DNA from: Heptranchias perlo
Taxonomy: Eukaryota
Length of the DNA: 64,000 bases
Reading direction: 5' to 3'
NCBI RefSeq assembly: GCF_035084215.1
Contig: NW_027138407.1
Location: 1,364,001-1,428,000 of the forward strand
The notes below the pieces were generated by a model, which was not told the DNA's origin, did no database searches, and saw only the letters and a program-made list of their open reading frames with translations. This document shows, in pieces, positions 311-38,074 of the stretch. Both the position numbers and the translations under genes were made by a program. Numbering within the stretch: the stretch's first letter is position 1; every line of letters begins with the position of its first letter.

Positions 311-519
311 ATTTAACGTGGTGGAGGGTTGCTCATTGTACTTTAATTCTAATACATAATTAGTTTTATGAATAATAAGTATATAATATATATAAATGCA
401 GATAGATGAGTGAAAGCCCTTTATAGAGGTAACCAGGCTGATGGCTGACCGACTGATGGACAGTGGCCTCTCTGGACATCGGTCACTTGTTCTCCCTGAG
501 CTGGTGCACCAGATTTTAT

Positions 520-824
520 CAGAGTTATCCCAGTTCAGCGAAACAGGGAAAGGACTCATCGAAAACCGGGAAATGCAGGAGGGCAAAACATACTGATGGC
601 CAGAATCCTGTCTACAAAGGTGACGGAAATCCGTCACCAGCCTTGCAGTCCACAGGAACAGGAAGGAGAAGGTTTTGAAATCCGTTTCTCTGCTGAGCTC
701 CAGCACTCCGACACCTTCAGCAGTTTAACCATCTCCGGGTTGCAGTTGACTGACGCTGCCGTGTATTATGGTGTTCTCGGTGAGTCTCAGTGATGAGAAG
801 CATTTTCATCCCCTCCCATAAGCT
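520..824 (+). pseudogene. TCR V-alpha/delta pseudogene with degenerate 23-RSS
   Basis: FR3 reads RFSAELQHSDTFSSLTISGLQLTDAAVYYG (Cys104->Gly); 5' part scrambled; heptamer CTCAGTG 786-792, 23-bp spacer, nonamer CCATAAGCT 816-824. Confidence 0.8.
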
Positions 825-20503: not shown

Positions 20504-20614
20504 CTTAAAATAAGCACACTCTGGCCGTCAGCAGGACACTGAAAGCGACGCACTTCAAAAAGAGAACTCTCAATCCCATCACCGTCAAAGACAGAAAATT
20601 CACCCTCGGTAGAT
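20504..20614 (-). CDS. TRDC: TCR-delta C exon 3 (transmembrane/cytoplasmic)
   Basis: cttacag|(D)LPRVNFLSLTVMGLRVLFLKCVAFSVLLTARVCLF* G|gtaag; carries the Arg and Lys CD3-association residues and closely resembles the TRDC TM pattern (VN.MSLTVLGLR.LF.K). Confidence 0.93.
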
Positions 20615-20835: not shown

Positions 20836-20907
20836 CTGTTTGGGCGTCCTTCGTCCCTGCTCTGAAATTATTTGAACGTTTTCCACAATCAGGCTTTCTG
20901 CCGGGGC
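20836..20907 (-). CDS. TRDC: TCR-delta C exon 2 (connecting peptide with interchain Cys)
   Basis: ttagcag|..PGRKPDCGKRSNNFRAGTKDAQT G|gtcagt; phase 1-1 exon, in frame with the TM exon. Confidence 0.85.
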
Positions 20908-21573: not shown

Positions 21574-21895
21574 CGGCTGCAGATTCCTGGCTGTCGCTTA
21601 TTTGCATAAAAAGATCGAGCCCTGTGTTTTGCCTCACACGTGACATTTACTGAATGTTTGGATGAATTGAAAGAGAGGAACCCTGAGCTCCTGTAATACC
21701 CGTTGTTTAATAAGTGACTGGATATCGTGACATCGGTCTTTGGGACAGTGGTTGTATCCATGAAGAGCCCAATCTCTTTGGGGGTGAATTCCGATACCAA
21801 ACATACCACCGCCGTGTCAGTACTCTCCCCGTCCCCTCTTTGTATCGCGGGCGGGTAAAAGACCGACACGGTTGGCTCTTTCGGAGTTTTGTCCT
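21574..21895 (-). CDS. TRDC: TCR-delta C exon 1 (C1-set Ig domain); splice-phase anomaly at its 3' end
   Basis: ttcag|(K)DKTPKEPTVSVFYP..AVVCLVSEFTPK..NGYY..VTCEAKH..|gtgagt; 322 bp, enters in phase 1 and exits in phase 2. Confidence 0.9.
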
Positions 21896-23441
21896 CTGAA
21901 AATTAAAGAATAGAACGGGGAAATTATTTTGACTTCATTAATGTTGAGCACAGACCGATACATCAATAAATGACTGATAATGAAATTCGACAATAAAACA
22001 ATAGTGCACAGAAATTTAAAGGAAAACAGCCAATCGAGCCTGTTCCACTATTCGATTTGATCATGGCTGAACTGTATCTTAACTCCATTTACCCGCCTTG
22101 GTAACGTAACCCTTAATACCCTTGCCTAACAAAATCTATCAATTTCAGTTTTGAAATTTTCAATTGACCCCAATCCTAAGCAGTTTTCCGTGGAGACAGT
22201 TCCAAATTTCCACTGCCATTTGTGTGATGAAGTGCTCCCTGACATCACCCCTGAACGGCCTGGCTCTAATTTTAAGGTTGTGCCCCCTTGTTCTGGACTC
22301 CCCCACTATAGGAATAAGTTTCTCTCTATCTACCCTTTCAAATCCTTTAATCATCTTAAACCCCTCAACCATTCTCCATTCAAAGGCATCCCATTTTCCA
22401 ATAGCTCCCTGTGTTCAGAAATTTCTCTCATCACCTTCGCTTAGTGGCTATTTCAAATTGATGACTCCTCCTCGCCTTAAATTGTTGTTAGTTGCTCAAA
22501 TCCTTATATAACGTGGCAGACGTTATTTCTTCATCCACTGACTCTAGTCCGCTGCATTAAAAATATGATTTCCCGTTATTTTCAGCAAATCAAGATTTTT
22601 GTTTTAATTCCATGGACCACCATTATTCTCGCGATCAAATAATTTGGCTTTTACGGATTAGTTGTGCTTGTGTAAGGTTGGCTTTTGCAAGAAAAATCAA
22701 CCCCATAATATCTAAACGTACATAGATCGCTAAATTTCGGCACACAATGATCTGTGAATCCAGATTATTGATTTTTTTTTTGCAATTAATGTGTATGAGA
22801 CATGGGCTATTTGAACTTACTCAAATCCACACTTCAACACAGGAACATCTGTACATCCACCGACAAACACGGTGTTAAATTTCTGTGCACAGCTGAAAGT
22901 TTCTGCATAAACTGCACCAAATGAATGGGAACACAACACAACGTCTCAAATATGATTGTTGCATGCAATGATTTAAGGTCCCCTATAACAATCCTGGAGT
23001 AATGATTCAACAAGCAATATCTGGAATGATTCCGCAGACACTGAAGCCACCGCTGGTTTCCTTTCCATCGCGGTAATGCGGATGTAGTAAAACTCTCAAT
23101 TGCATCCAATTTGTTATCGTTATGGAAAGAATGTAAACTCGCGCACAATCGCTGGAAAATTGCGTCTGATATCGAAGGGTAAACTATCAGATTATCTGGT
23201 CGTTATCACTTTGCTATTTGGAAACCTTGCTGTGCGCAAAATGCCTGCTGTGTTTCCTGCATTACAACAGTAAAGCAGCTTCAGACGTCCTGGGGTCGCG
23301 AAAGGCGCTTTCACAATTGAATGTATTATTTCTTTCTAAAAAATCATTTCCGAGCTCGTCCCCCAATATTTAGCAGATACCTTATGGCATGAATCTTTTA
23401 TTGTTACAAAAGGGCGTGTAATTTGCTTAAATGTTTCTTAC

Positions 23442-23503
23442 TTGTCTGTACAATCACTTCAGTTCCGTCTCCAAATGTTAGTTTAGCAGCATAACCTAAT
23501 CCA
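23442..23503 (-). other. TRDJ: J-delta segment, the only intact J of the cluster
   Basis: GLGYAAKLTFGDGTEVIVQT A|gtaag (FGxG intact); RSS CACAGTG 23504-23510 + 13 bp + TGTAAAACC 23524-23532; splices in frame to C exon 1. Confidence 0.92.
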
Positions 23504-23583
23504 CACAGTGATAGGTACCTAACTGTAAAACCCTCTCTGCGCCACCAGGTCTGATTCCTGCGCATTGCTCCAGAAAGAGGACA

Positions 23584-23650
23584 GGTTGTTGGAAAAGTGA
23601 ACTGGGTACCGCAGACCCCCGTTAATGGGGCAAATTATCTTAACCGCGAT
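23584..23650 (-). pseudogene. Possible highly degenerate J
   Basis: Reads PLTGVCGTQFTFPT, echoing PLxFGxGTQLTVxP; no donor or RSS recognisable. Confidence 0.35.
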
Positions 23651-23750
23651 TTAATAATAGATACCTGGTCTCTCCAACAATATTCACCAGAAGGCAACAC
23701 GTGTTCACAAGGGGGGGAAGAACGATACAATGTTCTTATATTTTGCTTAC

Positions 23751-23804
23751 CCTGTTGTAAAATAATTCTGGCCTCACTTATGAATATTAGTTTCATGGCC
23801 GTAT
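23751..23804 (-). pseudogene. Pseudo-J
   Basis: DTAMKLIFISEARIILQQ G|gtaag: KLIF and donor kept, GxG lost, RSS degenerate. Confidence 0.6.
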
Positions 23805-24123
23805 CTCAATATCCTGCCAATTAACAGCTGAACAGGCAGAAACCTGTTCCAGGAGCGCTGTAACTGTCTGGACTGTAGCGTAAAAGTAAAACCAAAAGCT
23901 TCAACTGTGGCCTCATCTTGCTGAATTGCGTACTGGACATCTTTAGAAGTGTGGCTTAATTGCCTTTCGCCATTACACACACAGTTCAGTGAAACATCTC
24001 CCTCTAGCACATACGTGTGTGTTCGTGCTAAGGACTGGATATCAGTTTAAGGAATAGACACTAACTTTGCATCATCCACTAAATCGCCCTGAATTGAGAT
24101 TAAGAAGACCCAAATCTCCACAT

Positions 24124-24186
24124 TCCGTTGCACAATCAATCTGGTCCCCGGTTCCAAATGTTAGCTTATCACCCCGCCCATACTCT
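24124..24186 (-). pseudogene. Pseudo-J
   Basis: EYGRGDKLTFGTG(+1 G)TRLIVQR; frameshift, donor GT lost, no usable heptamer. Confidence 0.75.
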
Positions 24187-24299
24187 ATTATGTAAAAATA
24201 TAACTGTGCGACTCTGCGTCTTGATTGAGTCCAATTTGAAACCGCTAAATATGAAAAACAGAAAAAGTTGAGAGACCAAATTGGGGAGTAGGTACTTAC

Positions 24300-24364
24300 T
24301 GGGTTCCGCAATCAGCCTGTCTCCATTCCAAAACGTGAGCTTTTATTTGTCTCCGTATGTCAAT
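24300..24364 (-). pseudogene. Pseudo-J
   Basis: ..GDK*KLTFWNGDRLIAEP A|gtaagt: in-frame TAA and FG->FW; RSS CACAGTT 24365-24371 with only a 10-bp spacer to ACAAGATCC. Confidence 0.75.
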
Positions 24365-24697
24365 CACAGTTGATCCCTATAACAAGATCCCTTGGAATCT
24401 CCTCCACATCTCCCAGCAACTGATCATCTTGTTCAAGAAGGATAGGGCTGGTGAGCTTAATTGCATGTCTTTATTCACCAGCCGTCTTGGAGCGTTCCCG
24501 CAATGTGATCACAGCAATAAATATCCAGGGAAAATAAAGTAACAAAATGAACAGAATGTAAAACGGTAACGCTCCGGGGGTAACCGTTGCTTGATTGCAA
24601 CTGGGCCGTCCCCGGGGCTTGTTGAGAATGTTGTTGTGCCGTTCTGTGTAGATGGGAGGTTATTGTACGAGCACTTAAGCAGACTGAAACCACTGTG

Positions 24698-25008
24698 CGC
24701 ATCGGTGCGCACACTCACAGCACAGTGATACACAGCGGAGTCACTCGATTGTAATTTGGAGATGATTAACCGGCTGATTTTCTTGACAGGATCGATAGAA
24801 GCAGAAATTCTGCCCACGGCAGCGTTTTCATTGTTCCCTGCTCCTGAAGTGTGTCTCTGTAGGAGGTATTTCGGAGCCTGCCCTGGGCACTGACTGTACC
24901 AGTGTACTGTGTACGGACAGACCCCTGACAATTTGCAGCTTAAAGTAACGGTGTCACCGGCAGCAGAGGTTTGTCGAGGCAATCTCTGGGACACAGATAA
25001 ACTGGAAT
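24698..25008 (-). CDS. Leaderless NAR-TCR supporting V-delta (STCRDV-type)
   Basis: cctgcag|(D)SSLSVSQRLPRQTSAAGDTVTLSCKLSGVCPYTVHWYSQCPGQAPKYLL..AVYHCAVSVRTDA; CDR1 Cys; no leader exon found upstream, in frame with the NAR J donor; RSS CACAGTG 24691-24697 + 24 bp + ACAATAACC 24658-24666. Confidence 0.9.
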
Positions 25009-27624
25009 CTGCAGGATGAAAATTGGGAGATTAGTATTTCTTTAGCTGCCGTTTAGACACTTGTCAATCGCATGATTAGCTCTGCCTCTTGCGGTAATGT
25101 TTTTCATCAGAAGCCGGTTCGAACTTTATTCACTTTCATTGGAAAAAGTACCAGAGGGGAGATGAGGAGAATGTTGTGTTATGCAGCGAATTGTTATGAT
25201 CTGGAACGCACTGCCCGAAAGGGTGGTGGGAGCAGATTCTATAGTAACTTTCAACACAAAATTGGATATATACTTGAAAAGGAAAAATGAGCTTGGCTGT
25301 GGGTGAAAGAGCAGGGGAGTGGGTCTAATTGGAAAGCTCTTTCAAAGAGCCGGCACAGACACGATGGGCCTCAATGTCTCCTTCTGTGCTGAATGATTCA
25401 ATGATTTCTATTAAATTTCGACTTCTATTTTTCTTGCTGAAGACGAATCCGAAGAGACATTTTGAACAATCCATTCTTCTCTTCACTGAGACAATCACCT
25501 CGCAATAATTATGGACTGAGAGTAGCCCGGGTGTGTTATGTTTTACTGCGCACAGCAAGATCCAATTGAAAGTAGTGAGATCCTTTATCAATGGTCTTTG
25601 TTGTGAGCCGGAGCATGTCCGTCGCAACCTTTTAACTTGGACAGAACATCAGCAACGATTGACCCAAACTGACACTGAATATCTGTGGGTCAAAGGTCAG
25701 ACTTTAATTGCACGTCACGGGAGCTCCAGTCCGCCGCTCGCTCTATTTTTCTATTTTCTTGCCTCATTGGGTTCACTTTTGTCCAATTCACTTTAATCTG
25801 AGTTATTTTCAGTTACTTTCATTTCTACATCTGGGTCGCTCCCTTTCTCCCGTTTTTGGTTTCCCGCCATCCTGAGAACTTATCCCAAAGTCTCTCATTT
25901 ATTGGTGGGATCAGTCTGTGCAGTTTTGCAGTGGTTTTACTGTTACTCACTGGGAACTGTCTCTTCCTAGGGTCTAATAATGTCAATTACTTCATACTAT
26001 TGTTGATCCTCTCCCGTGTTCTCCGGGCAGAGTTTTCTCTGAGTTTTACACCATACAGAATCTGTACAACAGAAAAAGGCCATTCGGCCCAACTGGTCTA
26101 TTCTGGTGTTTATGTTACAAAACAACCTCCGCCCGCTCCAATTGTCTCTTCCCACCCTGACCACCACGGATCCACCCCACCCCACCGCGCTATCTCTCTA
26201 TTCCTTTCTCTCTCAAGTATACGTCATGCCTCACCTTAAATGTGTCAATCTTATCTGCTTCAACTATTCCACTTGGCAGCACGTTCCACATTCTCACCAC
26301 TCTCTGAGTAAATAAATTCCTCCTACCTTCTTTATTTTTTCTGTTAACGACTATTTAATATTTATGGCCCCTTGTTATGGACTCACCCACAAGTGGAAAC
26401 GGTTTCTCCACATCCACCCTATCGAACACTTTCATAATTTTAAAGACCGCTTATCAGGTCTCCTCGTGCTCTTCTCTTTTCCAGAGAAACGAGCCCCGGC
26501 CTGTTCAATCTTTCCTGCTGCTGGTATCTTTTCTCAGGCGTTTTAGAAATGCAAAGCTGCGAAAAGGCCCTGATCCCAATCGAAGCCCATCTCTCGGGTA
26601 AATCTAACTCCATCGGTGCCGGATTGTACTTTCAACGGCCCAGGGGTCGGTGTCTCCACACTTGCCCGGCAATGGGCGATATTTCACTCCCTTTTAGTGA
26701 ATTAATTCTTGCTGGTTCTAAATGGACTTTTCTCCAGCCTGTACTTGTTCCCTCGGGTGCTCCTGTTTTCCTTTATAAGAACATTTGCGCCTCGCACTCA
26801 CTCTCTCACTGCCCAATGTTGTTTCAATTAACATTAACGAAGACGCCAGATAAATTAATGCAAACCGATCTCACAAACATTGACAGTAAATATAGAAAAA
26901 TGTCTGTCGTTGGATGCTTTCAAATTTAGACTTAAACGCGGAGCATCGAGAAAAAAATGATTGTTTATTTGAAGGGAATTGAAATAAATATTAGATAAAA
27001 TGCAATTAATTTCAGTCACTGGGTGTCCAATCATGAAATGCCATCTAGACCTACAGCTGATCTCTTGTATCTGAAGCCCCGCCGTGTTATGCTCCAGTGT
27101 TTCTGCCGCTGCAGTAATCGGATGGGCCACTGTAGTGTTGGGTTTACTCGTCCGGTACCTCATTCACACTGCCCAGCTTGGACTGTAATCTCCTGCCCAG
27201 GAGAGAGATCTGTAGCCTCCCTTGTGCTCACAGGGACAGGCAGGTCTCCCTCAGTCACAAGTTAACACTGAGAGCGGATGCCGGAGTGCGGACAATCTGC
27301 GCTCATTTACATCAAATTGGGATCAGAGTAAGAAAGAGTCCGCGATGTTCATGGGATCCCCGAGGTCCCCGTTAAACCAGTGATGGTCCAGATGGGGTCA
27401 AACCCCAGTCTGCCTGTTCGTGGGGGGTCTCACAGCTCCTCCCTCCGAACTCACACCCGGTTCATATTCTGGTGCGGAATCTATAACTGCAATGGAAATG
27501 TCCCCTTAGAAAACCGCTATATTTTACTTTGAAGGGGAATGAGGTGATACCAATCACAATAAAAAAACTGCCGGTGAATATTAACCGGAACCTCTGTAAC
27601 ACGGCGGGGTTTGGAGTCACTTAC

Positions 27625-27701
27625 CGGCTGTGACGGTTACCACCGTCCCGGATCCATCCAAATAACAATATCGCCCCTCGTAATATCCAGCACCACAGTA
27701 A
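27625..27701 (-). other. NAR-TCR J segment (IgNAR/IgH-type, 23-RSS), 77 nt
   Basis: YCGAGYYEGRYCYLDGSGTVVTVTA G|gtaagt; RSS CACCGTG 27702-27708 + 23 + ACAAGAACC 27732-27740. Confidence 0.9.
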
Positions 27702-28091
27702 CACCGTGACACCGCTCTCAGTCACCCCGGTACAAGAACCACAGACACCTCAATCTGCTGGTCACACATCACCATAGAGTCCACGCTGCTCAATTATTCC
27801 AGGGATTTTAGATCAATAAACAATATTCCATGTTTCACAGTCCCAGTCGGTTCAAACTCTTCTTTCTGAGACTCTCGGCTCTTTGTAAAATGGCCCCGGT
27901 ACACGGGCAGGAGATGGGCGTTTAATATAAACGGAGAAAATGTCAAAGAAAGATCACTGAAAGCAGGAACTTGCAATAAAATTAATCCAGATTACAGCGA
28001 TAATAACATCAAACCTACAATTCAGGATCCGGACCAGGAGAAGTGATATTTTAATTGTACAGAGGTATTTGCTGAGGTCTCTTCCACTGTG

Positions 28092-28104
28092 ATTTTCCCA
28101 TAAA
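28092..28104 (-). other. NAR-TCR D segment (12/12 RSS)
   Basis: TTTATGGGAAAAT, open in all three frames (FMGK/LWEN/YGK); 3' RSS CACAGTG 28085-28091 + 12 + GCAAATACC; 5' RSS CACAGTA 28105-28111 + 12 + ATAAAATCC. Confidence 0.9.
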
Positions 28105-28492
28105 CACAGTACTTCAAGTCAGCATAAAATCCCCCAGTCTTTAGTGATACGTTGGGACATTAGTTAAACGGCGGGGATTGCGGATCTCGGTTCCAGCTGT
28201 TAGAACAGGATCCCATCTGGTGTTAAGGACTTGTAAATGGGATCAGTCATTCCCAATCGCCATTCATTGACACCAATCCCAGGAAAGACATCATCCGCAC
28301 AGAGTCCGCAATTATAAAACACAAGATGTGAACTGTAATAATCCAAACTCATTATTAACTAGAGTGTGGGGCAGAAGGTCCGAGGCGGACCTGTTGGGTT
28401 TAATCGTAAATAATCTCTGTTTTTCCATTTGTTTCCGTGACAATCTGCAGTGAGAGTTTTTGTATCACGGGAAGCCGAGACCTATCACTGTG

Positions 28493-28967
28493 GTCTTCAT
28501 ACTTTGCTTTACAATAATAGGTGGCGCTATCTTCAACTCTCGTATCCCTAATTTCCAGCGAAAATATATTTTTTGCATAATTCGTTGAAGCAGCAAATCG
28601 TCCTCCGCCGTAGATCCGCTTCCGCTTTGTCCCGCTCTGAGTTTGTTTGAAGAAATCCCCACTCTGGAAATAATAATACGAAGCATCTGCTTTGAAAACG
28701 CAGGTGATGGTGAGAGACTGACACTCCTCCCTGGTCTTCGCTGCCGGGGTCTGTTTCACTGACTGACCGAAAGAGCCTGGAAATTAAACAGAGAGAGAGT
28801 TTAATGAGACATCAGAGCCGAACCACACAACGGGGATAAAAGGGTGACCGTGTCTGCAATTTGAATGGTCAGGGCAGCGTTGTTTTAAATTCACACATTG
28901 TACGTTTGGTTGAACGGTACTCACGGGGTAAACAGACACACAGGATGAAAACAAGGAGGATTCCCAT
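28493..28967 (-). CDS. NAR-TCR V (IgNAR-like V domain) with leader
   Basis: Leader 28967-28925 MGILLVFILCVCLP|gt; V exon 28776-28493 QSVKQTPAAKTREECQSLTITC..GGGRF..FSLEIRDTRVEDSATYYCKA; only 62 aa between canonical Cys (VNAR-like CDR2 loss); a-b loop Cys; RSS CACAGTG 28486-28492 + 22 + ACAAAAACT. Confidence 0.92.
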
Positions 28968-33398: not shown

Positions 33399-33837
33399 AT
33401 GTGCTTCTCATGTTCCTAACTGGTAATAATGGTCTTGCTGCCCGGTGAGTCTATGATTAAATGGTCAGTGTGTGTTTCATGGTTTTTTTTTGCTCCCAGA
33501 CTTTTGACACATTCTGTATTTTGTTACAGGAACGAGTGGCAAAGACACAGTGTCCCAGGATCCGCCTGAGTTAACGGTTCAGGACGGACAGACGGTAATA
33601 CTGGACTGTAGTTACTCGGCAGCAACCACTGACCCAACTCTCTTCTGGTACGTCCAGTATGCTGGGGAAGCTCCGAGATATTTAGTGGAAAGATGTAGCT
33701 CGGGGCAGGGAGATAAGTCTTCAGATTTCCCAGGCCGGTTTTCTGCTGATGTGGACAACAACGAGAAAACGGTTCCTTTAAAAATCACCGAGGCTCTTGT
33801 CTCTGACTCTGCCGTGTAGCTCTGTGCCATGGAGCCC
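33399..33837 (+). pseudogene. TCR V pseudogene (family W, paralogue of V 59540-59977)
   Basis: Leader MCFSCS* (TAA); V exon from 33530 with TAG at 33817-33819 before Cys104; RSS CACATTG 33838-33844 + 23 + AAAAAAACA. Confidence 0.9.
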
Positions 33838-34630
33838 CACATTGTTACCGGGGCGCAGTCAGTCCGTAAAAAAACAGCAAAGGTCTCTCATTGAAGCAGA
33901 TCGATGACCTGGATTGTGATCTGATAATAGAACAGAAACCAAACCATAAAAACAAGCAAAAGAGTCAATAAATAGATGGATAGATAATTAAAAAGATAGA
34001 CAGAGAGGGAGATAAATAAAGTCTCACTCTCCTCACTTTCTCTCTCAATGATCTCTCTCTCCTTTGTTTGAAAGTATCCATCTCACGCAAACTAAACCCA
34101 GCCCGTGTAAATTACAGCTGCGGAGTCTGCGAGTGTAAGATACGGTGCGTTTAACAGCTCAGTAACCAGCTTGTTCCCGTTAGCTTGGGAGCTGAATGAT
34201 GAGATAGTTGGACACTAGAGTTGTTTCAATCATCATCCCGAGTGACCGACTGCAGTGACCCCAAGAGATAGATCAGATTGTGAACAGGCTAAAAATGTTA
34301 ACGCGGAATATTGCTTTAAATTAAACTTTGTAAGTAGCACCTGGGGACACGGGTTCAAACCAGGACAGGTCATTTCAGGAACTGATATCAGGAAATTCTT
34401 CAGTCACAGAGAGCGCTCAATGTGTGGAGTCAGGTTCCAGATGGAACAGCGGAGGGAAAAACCCGGGAATCATTTCAGAAAATGGGGGAGAGGGTGTTAG
34501 GATCTCTCTGGATGGATGAACTAAGAGCGTCCGAATTCTCTCTCCCATCCGGAATTATCCTGTGATCTTTTGAACTGCAGCGAGGCAGTCGTTGCCTCTT
34601 GGAATTGTACCTTGCAGTTACATGTAGTCG

Positions 34631-36567: not shown

Positions 36568-36974
36568 ATGGCTCCCATGTTAGTGCAGATATATTTGCTG
36601 TGCACGCGTTTCTTTTTGTTACCGGCTGAGTATTTTACTTCAGTGTATCCACTTCTTTTGGCTATTCAGAGGTCCAATTAATTAGGAAAGTTTGACACAG
36701 ACGGAAACGTTATTACAACATACAGAAGGAGAGACATTAAAATCTACTTTTTTCCACAAGCTACAGAATCGATGAGCTGGATTGGTACCGACAACATCCA
36801 CAGAAAGAGCCGAAGTATCTCCTGAAGAGACACATTAACGGTTACCAAAATAAATCACATAGTCTCGGAGAACGGTTCTATTCAGAGCAGAAAGCAACTG
36901 ACGGTTTTAACACCCTGACCACCTCTGCCTTGCAACTGGTTGATAGCGCTGTGTATTACTGTGCACTGGAACCT
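36568..36974 (+). pseudogene. TCR V pseudogene (family Y)
   Basis: Leader MAPMLVQIYLLCTRFFLLP with damaged donor; FR1 deletions/frameshifts; WYRQHPQK..YYCALEP retained; RSS CACAGTG 36975-36981 + 23 + ACAAAGACC. Confidence 0.85.
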
Positions 36975-38074
36975 CACAGTGACTCAAACTGCAGGCAGCC
37001 TCGCACAAAGACCGGATTCTTGTTTCTATCTGAACAGGGTGATCTTAAGATCCTGCTCCCGAAATACTGAGAGGTTTTCATTACCTGCTGGAACCTTTAT
37101 ATGACTATTTAGAAATATGATGTTAACCGCAATTCGGTTTTAAACAAGCCGTGTTATTGTTGTTTTATTTACAAAATATTACCATAGCTTTCCGCTCAAT
37201 TTTTTCTAATTACGTGAAAGATTCAATTTTATCCATGTGTTTTGTCCACAATTGATCAAAATAATTGCTGTTCGCATGACAAGGCCTCAGCCGTGGCTCA
37301 GTGGTATAACTCTCGCCTTTGAGTCGGAACGTCCTGGTTTCAAGCACGCCTCCAAAACCTTAAACACAGAATCTGGGCTGACACCCCCGGTGTCAATACT
37401 GAAGGAGTGCTACACGCTGCTACCGTCTTTCGGATGAGATGTTAAACCGAGCTCCCGTCTGCCCTCTCAGCTGGACGTAAAATATGCATCTGCCCCTATT
37501 GGAAGAAGAGCAGGGGAATTCTTCCTGGTACCCTGGCCAGTATGTATCCCGCAAGCAACAGATTATCTGGTCATTAGCACATTGCTGTTTGTGGGATCTT
37601 GCTGTGCGCAAACTGGCTGCGGCGGTTACAACAATAAATTCTATCTTTCCTGAGAAATATTTCATAGCACAGTGGACGATACGATGTGCTTCGTGTCCAA
37701 GAATATCAAAGGCAAAATGGTTACACGTTTAAGAATTGATCCTGGACCAGCGCGTTTTAATGAGATTATCAAAGTCCCAGTCCGCAAATGTGGCAAACCA
37801 TTTGAGAATAAAGTCCTATCATTTGAAATAGAATTGTAAAGGTTGCAGTGAGTGGGAGAGAAAAATATTCCGAAAATCTCAGTGAAAACTCCGACATAAC
37901 ACTTCAAAACCAATTTCACTTTGTACAATTAGAAGGACCATTCCGACCGGCGGACTTGCTGCTGGTGGATGTAATTTCCTACCAGTCAGTGCTCGGACTC
38001 ACACTGGGCACGGCGTGCTGTCTCCGCCGCCGTTCACCAGGCAGGAGAGGCTGTCGCTTTATTTGGTCACTGTG

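Follow-up and report, generated by a model that had tools for sequence, protein, structure and literature searches.

A supporting V segment likely fused to D-delta in the germ line within six NAR-TCR cassettes of the shark Heptranchias perlo

Introduction

Shark NAR-TCR was reportedly described by Criscitiello et al. in 2006, and the supporting V of the known NAR-TCR rearranges in V-D-J fashion to the canonical D, J and C. The receptor consists of two independent V(D)J rearrangements on a canonical TCR-delta V-C, according to PMC1845163, PMC5931798 and PMC12227049. The TCR-mu of the platypus, as summarized in PMC7615758 and PMC3457774, is encoded by [V1-Dn-J1-V2-J2-C] clusters with VH-like Vs, a lost D and a short CDR3, while the V-mu-j of marsupials is described in the same papers as fully joined and invariant and is attributed to retrotransposition. 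Germline joining is also reported in PMC2193156 for the NS4 light chains of the nurse shark, with the RSS fully excised, trimming and little TdT activity.

The locus described here, from the genome of Heptranchias perlo, resembles shark NAR-TCR in its make-up: a NAR V-D-J block, then a supporting V-delta that lacks a leader and has a CDR1 Cys, and a TCR-delta C. It differs from that system in that each cassette has its own J and its own C-delta (63% to the canonical one), and in that the supporting V appears to be pre-fused to the RSS of the D. Platypus TCR-mu is comparable in its duplicated clusters with their own C and in a second V that joins J without a free D; it differs in that here the D would have been absorbed into the V, a long CDR3 is predicted and the V is of TCR-delta type. 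The TCR-mu features of VH-related Vs, C-mu and a mammalian TRM locus were not found in the shark cassettes, the supporting V is closest to the TCR alpha/delta Vs of the same contig, and the two systems are of independent origin. Like marsupial V-mu-j, the shark locus shows germline joining of the membrane-proximal V in a TCR with three domains, but the shark V is half joined (VD), keeps its introns and RSS and still rearranges. A preliminary description of this stretch of DNA had seen in it an intermediate between D-containing NAR-TCR and V-mu-j; as a partly germline-joined segment it is a stronger analogue than was then supposed, but a convergent one and no step in the ancestry of TCR-mu. Nurse shark NS4 and partially joined IgH clusters (PMC2193156) likewise have excised RSSs, trimming, little N addition and a cluster arrangement; these are Ig loci, unlike the TCR alpha/delta locus that holds the present join. 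Searches of the literature brought up neither a pre-joined VD supporting V nor a cassette-specific C-delta; part of what is described here may already be in Criscitiello 2006 and 2010, Deiss 2019 and Ott 2021, and the novelty of the pre-fused VD cassette is provisional.

Results

Six NAR-TCR cassettes on one contig

The window, by which the whole analysed stretch of 64,000 nucleotides is meant (G000:C240:1364001-1428000, where G000 is the Heptranchias perlo genome and C240 is contig NW_027138407.1), is part of a shark TCR alpha/delta locus. Its minus strand carries a complete NAR-TCR cassette comprising leader, NAR V, D, J, supporting V, Js, C-delta, hinge and transmembrane (TM) exons, and the positions given below for cassette features are on that strand. 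Genome searches recovered seven C-delta exons on contig C240, six at 84-100% to that of the window and one, the canonical exon, at 63%. The genome contains six supporting Vs (80-100% to that of the window, with the next match at 47%), and these, together with six NAR Vs, fall in the same six cassettes, labelled K1-K6, of which the window copy is K4. Outside these cassettes the searches of G000 found no NAR-TCR V pairs, and they found no unfused copy of the supporting V. The 100 kb around the canonical C-delta served as the canonical reference; this region has about ten Js and a single D-delta, the 15-nt core of which lies at C240:804583-804569.

In the window cassette the leader exon (28925-28967) precedes a NAR V exon (28776-28493) with its RSS (28455-28492, 22-nt spacer; V and RSS together 28455-28776), a NAR D (28064-28132) whose 13-nt core (28104-28092) is flanked by two 12-RSS, and a NAR J with a 23-RSS (27625-27740). 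The leader, the A-B loop Cys, the missing WYRK Trp and the V's own D and J agree with the diagnostic NAR V features of the legend to Fig. 3 of PMC1845163. The supporting V (24703-25008) carries the CDR1 Cys (GVCPY) and has no leader-like exon within 600 nt upstream. The J region is followed by the cassette-specific C-delta Ig exon (21574-21895), the hinge exon (20836-20907) and the TCR-delta TM exon (20505-20614). Off-by-one RSS spacers occur behind the supporting Vs (24 nt in all six cassettes) and the NAR Vs (22 nt), and the spacer of the intact-J RSS (23504-23532 in the window) is 13 nt in four cassettes and 12 nt in K1 and K6. The 5' end of the NAR J is 14 nt longer in K2, K3 and K4 than in K1, K5 and K6 (window 27701-27680), with a second heptamer-like word inside it, the result of either a local duplication or a D-J join. 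The TM exon (20614-20505) is 92% identical to its canonical counterpart, compared with 76% for the C exon, which reflects either strong selection or gene conversion.

The end of the supporting V and its RSS

The supporting V end had been described as unusually long, and measurement bears this out: 27 nt separate the Cys codon from the heptamer in the window (CAVSVRTDA), compared with 12-16 nt in 33 ordinary V ends, 23 of which have 14 nt. The exon, including a terminal 5-nt piece, spans 25008-24698 and is followed by an RSS (24697-24658) with a 24-nt spacer and the nonamer ACAATAACC.

To judge from its sequence, the RSS behind the supporting V is that of the 3' side of canonical D-delta. Homology to the canonical locus begins 5 nt before the D 3' heptamer in all six cassettes, spans approximately 1,040 nt with J1-J3 included at 71-73%, and returns ahead of the last J, with 75-77% from there to the end of the C, hinge and TM exons. 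When 24330-24700 was searched against the DNA of the whole genome, seven matches emerged, namely the six cassettes and the canonical D-J1 stretch. The nonamer ACAATAACC is the D-delta nonamer and is found in none of 30 ordinary V RSSs; the spacer scores 14.5-16.5 against the D spacer and no higher than 11.5 with any of 30 ordinary V spacers. Supporting the same conclusion, alignment to the canonical locus shows no D 5' RSS ahead of the RSS of the supporting V. The five nucleotides preceding the heptamer (24698-24702) are a likely remnant of the D-delta 3' end, to which they match at four of five positions (about 0.016 by simple binomial). The V's own RSS, heptamer included, is absent at the joint in all six cassettes. 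Because six copies that are 8-19% diverged have the joint in common, inheritance is implied; these diverged copies and an RNA contig that spans the V-RSS junction also make misassembly unlikely. The preliminary description had noted the lack of an intact D; simple decay of the D is at odds with a V that carries the D 3' RSS and, apparently, the last 5 nt of the D.

Gene models of other elasmobranchs that read through the supporting V end help to place the other side of the joint. Thirty-two tails were examined and 22 resolved, with the heptamer placed by codon compatibility: it lies at 22 nt in 15 models, at 24 in one, at 26 in five and at 27 in one. The ends of 24-27 nt with a V-type RSS (7 of 22 models) belong to carpet sharks and a sawfish, and models that read further have in common a V-type spacer and a consensus nonamer unlike that of the D. 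The first 22 nt of the window V end (24724-24703, C-A-V-S-V-R-T) match the 22-nt type of sawshark, horn shark, basking shark and others, and four paralogues read C-A-L-S-P-R-T. By this comparison, 22 of the 27 nt would be ancestral to elasmobranch supporting Vs and the V-side break would coincide with the old heptamer border, which is placed by proxy from these relatives since no unfused copy is left in G000. The joint would then consist of the full 22-nt V end, no N bases, a D minus ten bases and the D's RSS, and no P nucleotides are visible at it. Eight N bases at the joint had been considered and were dropped once the 22-nt end was seen in the supporting Vs of other sharks.

The J segments and a candidate D

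The distance from the V end to the intact J, put earlier at about 1.2 kb, measures 1,194 nt. Of the three or four broken Js proposed for this interval, three stand. They are paralogues of canonical J1 (24300-24364; a stop, FGxG changed to FWxG and a displaced heptamer), J2 (24124-24190; a frameshift and a lost donor, canonical J2 being likewise frameshifted) and J3 (23751-23815; a destroyed heptamer and a stop). The fourth, at 23584, was not confirmed: a donor is missing, and its canonical counterpart is at best a J that is itself broken. A further pseudo-J (22867-22821, feature 22821-22874), new to the present analysis, lies downstream of the intact J; it is a paralogue of the last canonical J-delta with nonamer and FGxG deleted. 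The intact J itself (23503-23442; 23442-23532 with its RSS, 13-nt spacer) has its best canonical match in the J at C240:800789, found by a weak local alignment that was the top match for two of three queries, with no BLAST placement in the canonical locus. The J losses occurred partly through two deletions. One J dominates in all six cassettes, and the suggestion of a cluster reduced to a single usable J holds for the window copy but not for K3 and K6, which keep a second J (J1 and J3, respectively) with a good RSS, an open frame and an altered FGxG.

A weak heptamer pair at 24501-24516 had been singled out as the best D candidate in this interval. With a weight matrix derived from 30 V RSSs and 22 J RSSs of the locus, its two sides score 5.3 and 3.1 bits, compared with fifth percentiles for real RSSs of 12.3 (12-RSS, n=22) and 15.3 (23-RSS, n=30) and with 26.0 and 18.9 for the canonical D. 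It was rejected as a working D on these scores and on its 2-nt core, and the scoring revealed no functional D in the interval, in agreement with the earlier remark that none has good RSSs. A similar heptamer pair arises in 15.5% of 1,000 shuffles, and no RSS pair exists at the paralogous canonical position. The pair may yet be the vestige of a second D: its best-D score exceeds the 95th percentile (0.5) of 200 shuffles, and the pair is the best 12/23-like pair in five of six cassettes.

Transcripts

Three contig sets from one RNA sample, each with part of the region, were compared with the locus. Two loose contig ends, inspected by eye, agree with canonical D and J1 at 30 of 30 bases; the RNA therefore comes from the same organism as G000 or from one very close to it. 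In both RNA runs (X1 and X2) the NAR J end of a paralogous cassette is spliced to the supporting V at 25009. One contig joins a V end of the K1/K3/K5/K6 type, minus 1 nt, through 2 N and 2 P bases to an untrimmed intact J (by eye). Direct joining of supporting V to J, as had been predicted, is thus seen in one RNA contig; this sole V-J junction is out of frame, comes from a paralogous cassette and, as a case of one, is silent on the breadth of the repertoire. None of 27 contigs on 23400-25030 is at least 99% alike to the window, and the set is uninformative on expression of the window copy. Unrearranged transcripts of paralogous cassettes were also observed in which the donor of pseudo-J1 is spliced to C (window 24300 to 21895), and this donor may serve germline transcription.

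Diversity and state of the copies

The supporting domain had been expected to have a short, largely germline CDR3 of low diversity and to be drifting to invariance. The V end and the J, untrimmed, would give 52 nt from Cys to Phe, or approximately 17 amino acids, and the one junction available contains N and P bases. The six supporting Vs are 76-89% identical, thus differing by 11-24%, with a dN/dS of 0.98. A short CDR3 is thus not predicted, and a drift to invariance is not supported. The NAR Vs are 63-82% identical (dN/dS 0.83) and C1 is 84-95% identical (dN/dS 0.45). The 27-nt V end is identical in K1, K3, K5 and K6, where its flanks are 82-92% alike, which could reflect constraint or gene conversion.

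Three copies carry lesions. The C exon of the window has 322 nt, compared with 321 in its five paralogues, and the extra base, a +1 frameshift at 21600, puts the hinge out of frame with a stop after 6 codons, so that the chain ends before the TM; this copy is likely a pseudogene, although the base may also reflect an allele or an assembly error. In K3 a stop codon interrupts the NAR V (C240:1294810-1295085), and K6 has lost the hinge donor (C240:1477660 region). The C frame is open in K1, K2, K3 and K5, and in K1, K2 and K5 the frame stays open all the way from the leader to the TM.

Discussion

Origin of the fused supporting V

The supporting V was likely fused to the RSS and J region that follow canonical D-delta by a germline V-to-D join of RAG type, the part played by RAG being one that we infer. 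V would have been joined to D once in the germ line, within an ancestral block of NAR V-D-J, supporting V and D-J-C; point decay, together with two deletions of about 2.6 and 7 kb, would afterwards have shrunk the J set, and the block would then have been copied to six places. T cells would build the supporting domain by a single VD-to-J join and, as this would leave a single junction in place of two and for the most part a single J, the diversity of CDR3 would be lowered, not abolished. All six cassettes are colinear with the canonical delta locus (V end, 5 nt, D 3' RSS, J1-J3, C-delta). At the joint both intervening RSSs have been removed, as seen directly on the D side and by proxy on the V side, and the break falls at the coding-end border, which for the V was placed by means of the 22-nt end that 15 of 22 models of other sharks have. 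A second and independent V-D join is present in K1, in which the NAR V is joined in frame to the NAR D (C240:1166123-1166070); here the V is trimmed, about 7 untemplated bases and a D remnant follow, and the D's 12-RSS is kept. Weighing against a RAG-type fusion of the supporting V are a D remnant of only 5 nt, the V ends of 24-27 nt with V-type RSSs in 7 of 22 elasmobranch models, the untemplated bases of the K1 join, unlike the TdT-poor NS4 joints, and a lone RNA junction that is out of frame and paralogous. Retroposition is ruled out by the introns and RSSs that are kept. A crossover at a 12-nt word common to V FR3 and the D 5' RSS was also rejected, because YHCALS likewise ends the closest ordinary Vs (13 of 14 nt).

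The same fusion could have arisen without RAG, through a plain deletion in the germ line or a crossover at a microhomology, and have been retained for its working RSS, but this is judged unlikely. Short words common to the V end plus heptamer and the D end plus heptamer would permit such a crossover, the five remnant bases are similar to the first ones of the V-type spacer deduced for other sharks (a resemblance that also weighs against the RAG-type join), selection alone would let breakpoints survive only within some tens of bases, and visible P bases are lacking. These points are countered by a V break at the 22-nt ancestral coding end, a D break within the 15-nt core and the complete loss of both intervening RSSs, as well as by the second V-D join in K1; moreover, a crossover in the spacer would retain the V heptamer, which is absent. 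It is very unlikely that a D decayed in place at 24501-24516 while the supporting domain moved to invariance and the long V end took the place of the D. Canonical D maps to the RSS of the V, 188 nt from this pair, which has a 2-nt core and is missing from the canonical paralogue, and 22 nt of the V end are ancestral; the divergence and dN/dS of the supporting Vs and the N and P bases in the junction argue against it as well, even though the pair ranks best in five of six cassettes and exceeds 95% of shuffles, four copies have an identical 27-nt end despite flanks that differ, and a single J dominates throughout. That the cassettes are dying duplicates, whose D and J losses have no functional meaning, is hardly credible. 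The lesions in three of six (the window C frameshift, the K3 stop and the K6 donor loss) and the out-of-frame RNA junction would fit such decay, but the fusion and J losses are common to all six and are thus older than the lesions, three copies are open from leader to TM, C1 has a dN/dS of 0.45, the cassettes are transcribed, spliced and rearranged, and no NAR-TCR V pairs were found in G000 outside them.

Clusters in other sharks and wider meaning

A RAG-type join of the supporting V would add a third route, besides D loss in the platypus and retroposition in marsupials, to fewer recombination steps in a supporting domain. With two separate V-D joins in a single shark TCR locus, the genes on which RAG acts in the germ line would come to include those of TCRs. 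Whether the supporting CDR3 is selected for low diversity or only for fewer joins becomes a testable question because six natural copies with a dedicated C exist.

In Mustelus asterias up to eight C-delta models are linked to NAR-TCR Vs (P0018, P0020, P0021, P0028 and P0035-P0038), and six of these models also include a supporting V, although some of the eight may be haplotigs. Model P0036 reads through a V-type RSS, and fusion is therefore not evident in Mustelus. In a C-domain tree of 17 rows the cassette Cs of G000 group with the canonical C of G000 (93/89), and the AU test rejects a single clade that unites every cassette C (p = 0.017, with long branches in this tree); tree and rejected clade together point to an independent formation of clusters in G000 and Mustelus. 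A broader reading is plausible but tentative: RAG may have repeatedly cut the germline of the shark TCR alpha/delta locus, with one join turning NAR-TCR into self-contained, Ig-like clusters with a pre-joined VD and a diverged C-delta. These would be a separate TCR-delta isotype converging on mammalian TCR-mu, and clusters would have formed independently in at least one other shark lineage. The elephant shark supplement contained no NAR-TCR matches, and Table S1 of PMC12227049 lists one great white shark model as 'NARTCR V(gj)V(gi)V', a label that the rows concerned leave unexplained.

Broken alpha/delta Vs occur on both strands among intact ones in the window (500-793, 10495, 33508-33838 and 36741-36975). 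Use of Ig-like Vs in shark TCR-delta would predict IgH-like Vs near D-delta, and IgH-like V segments with a CARR end lie at C240:826000-817000, just upstream of the single canonical D-delta.
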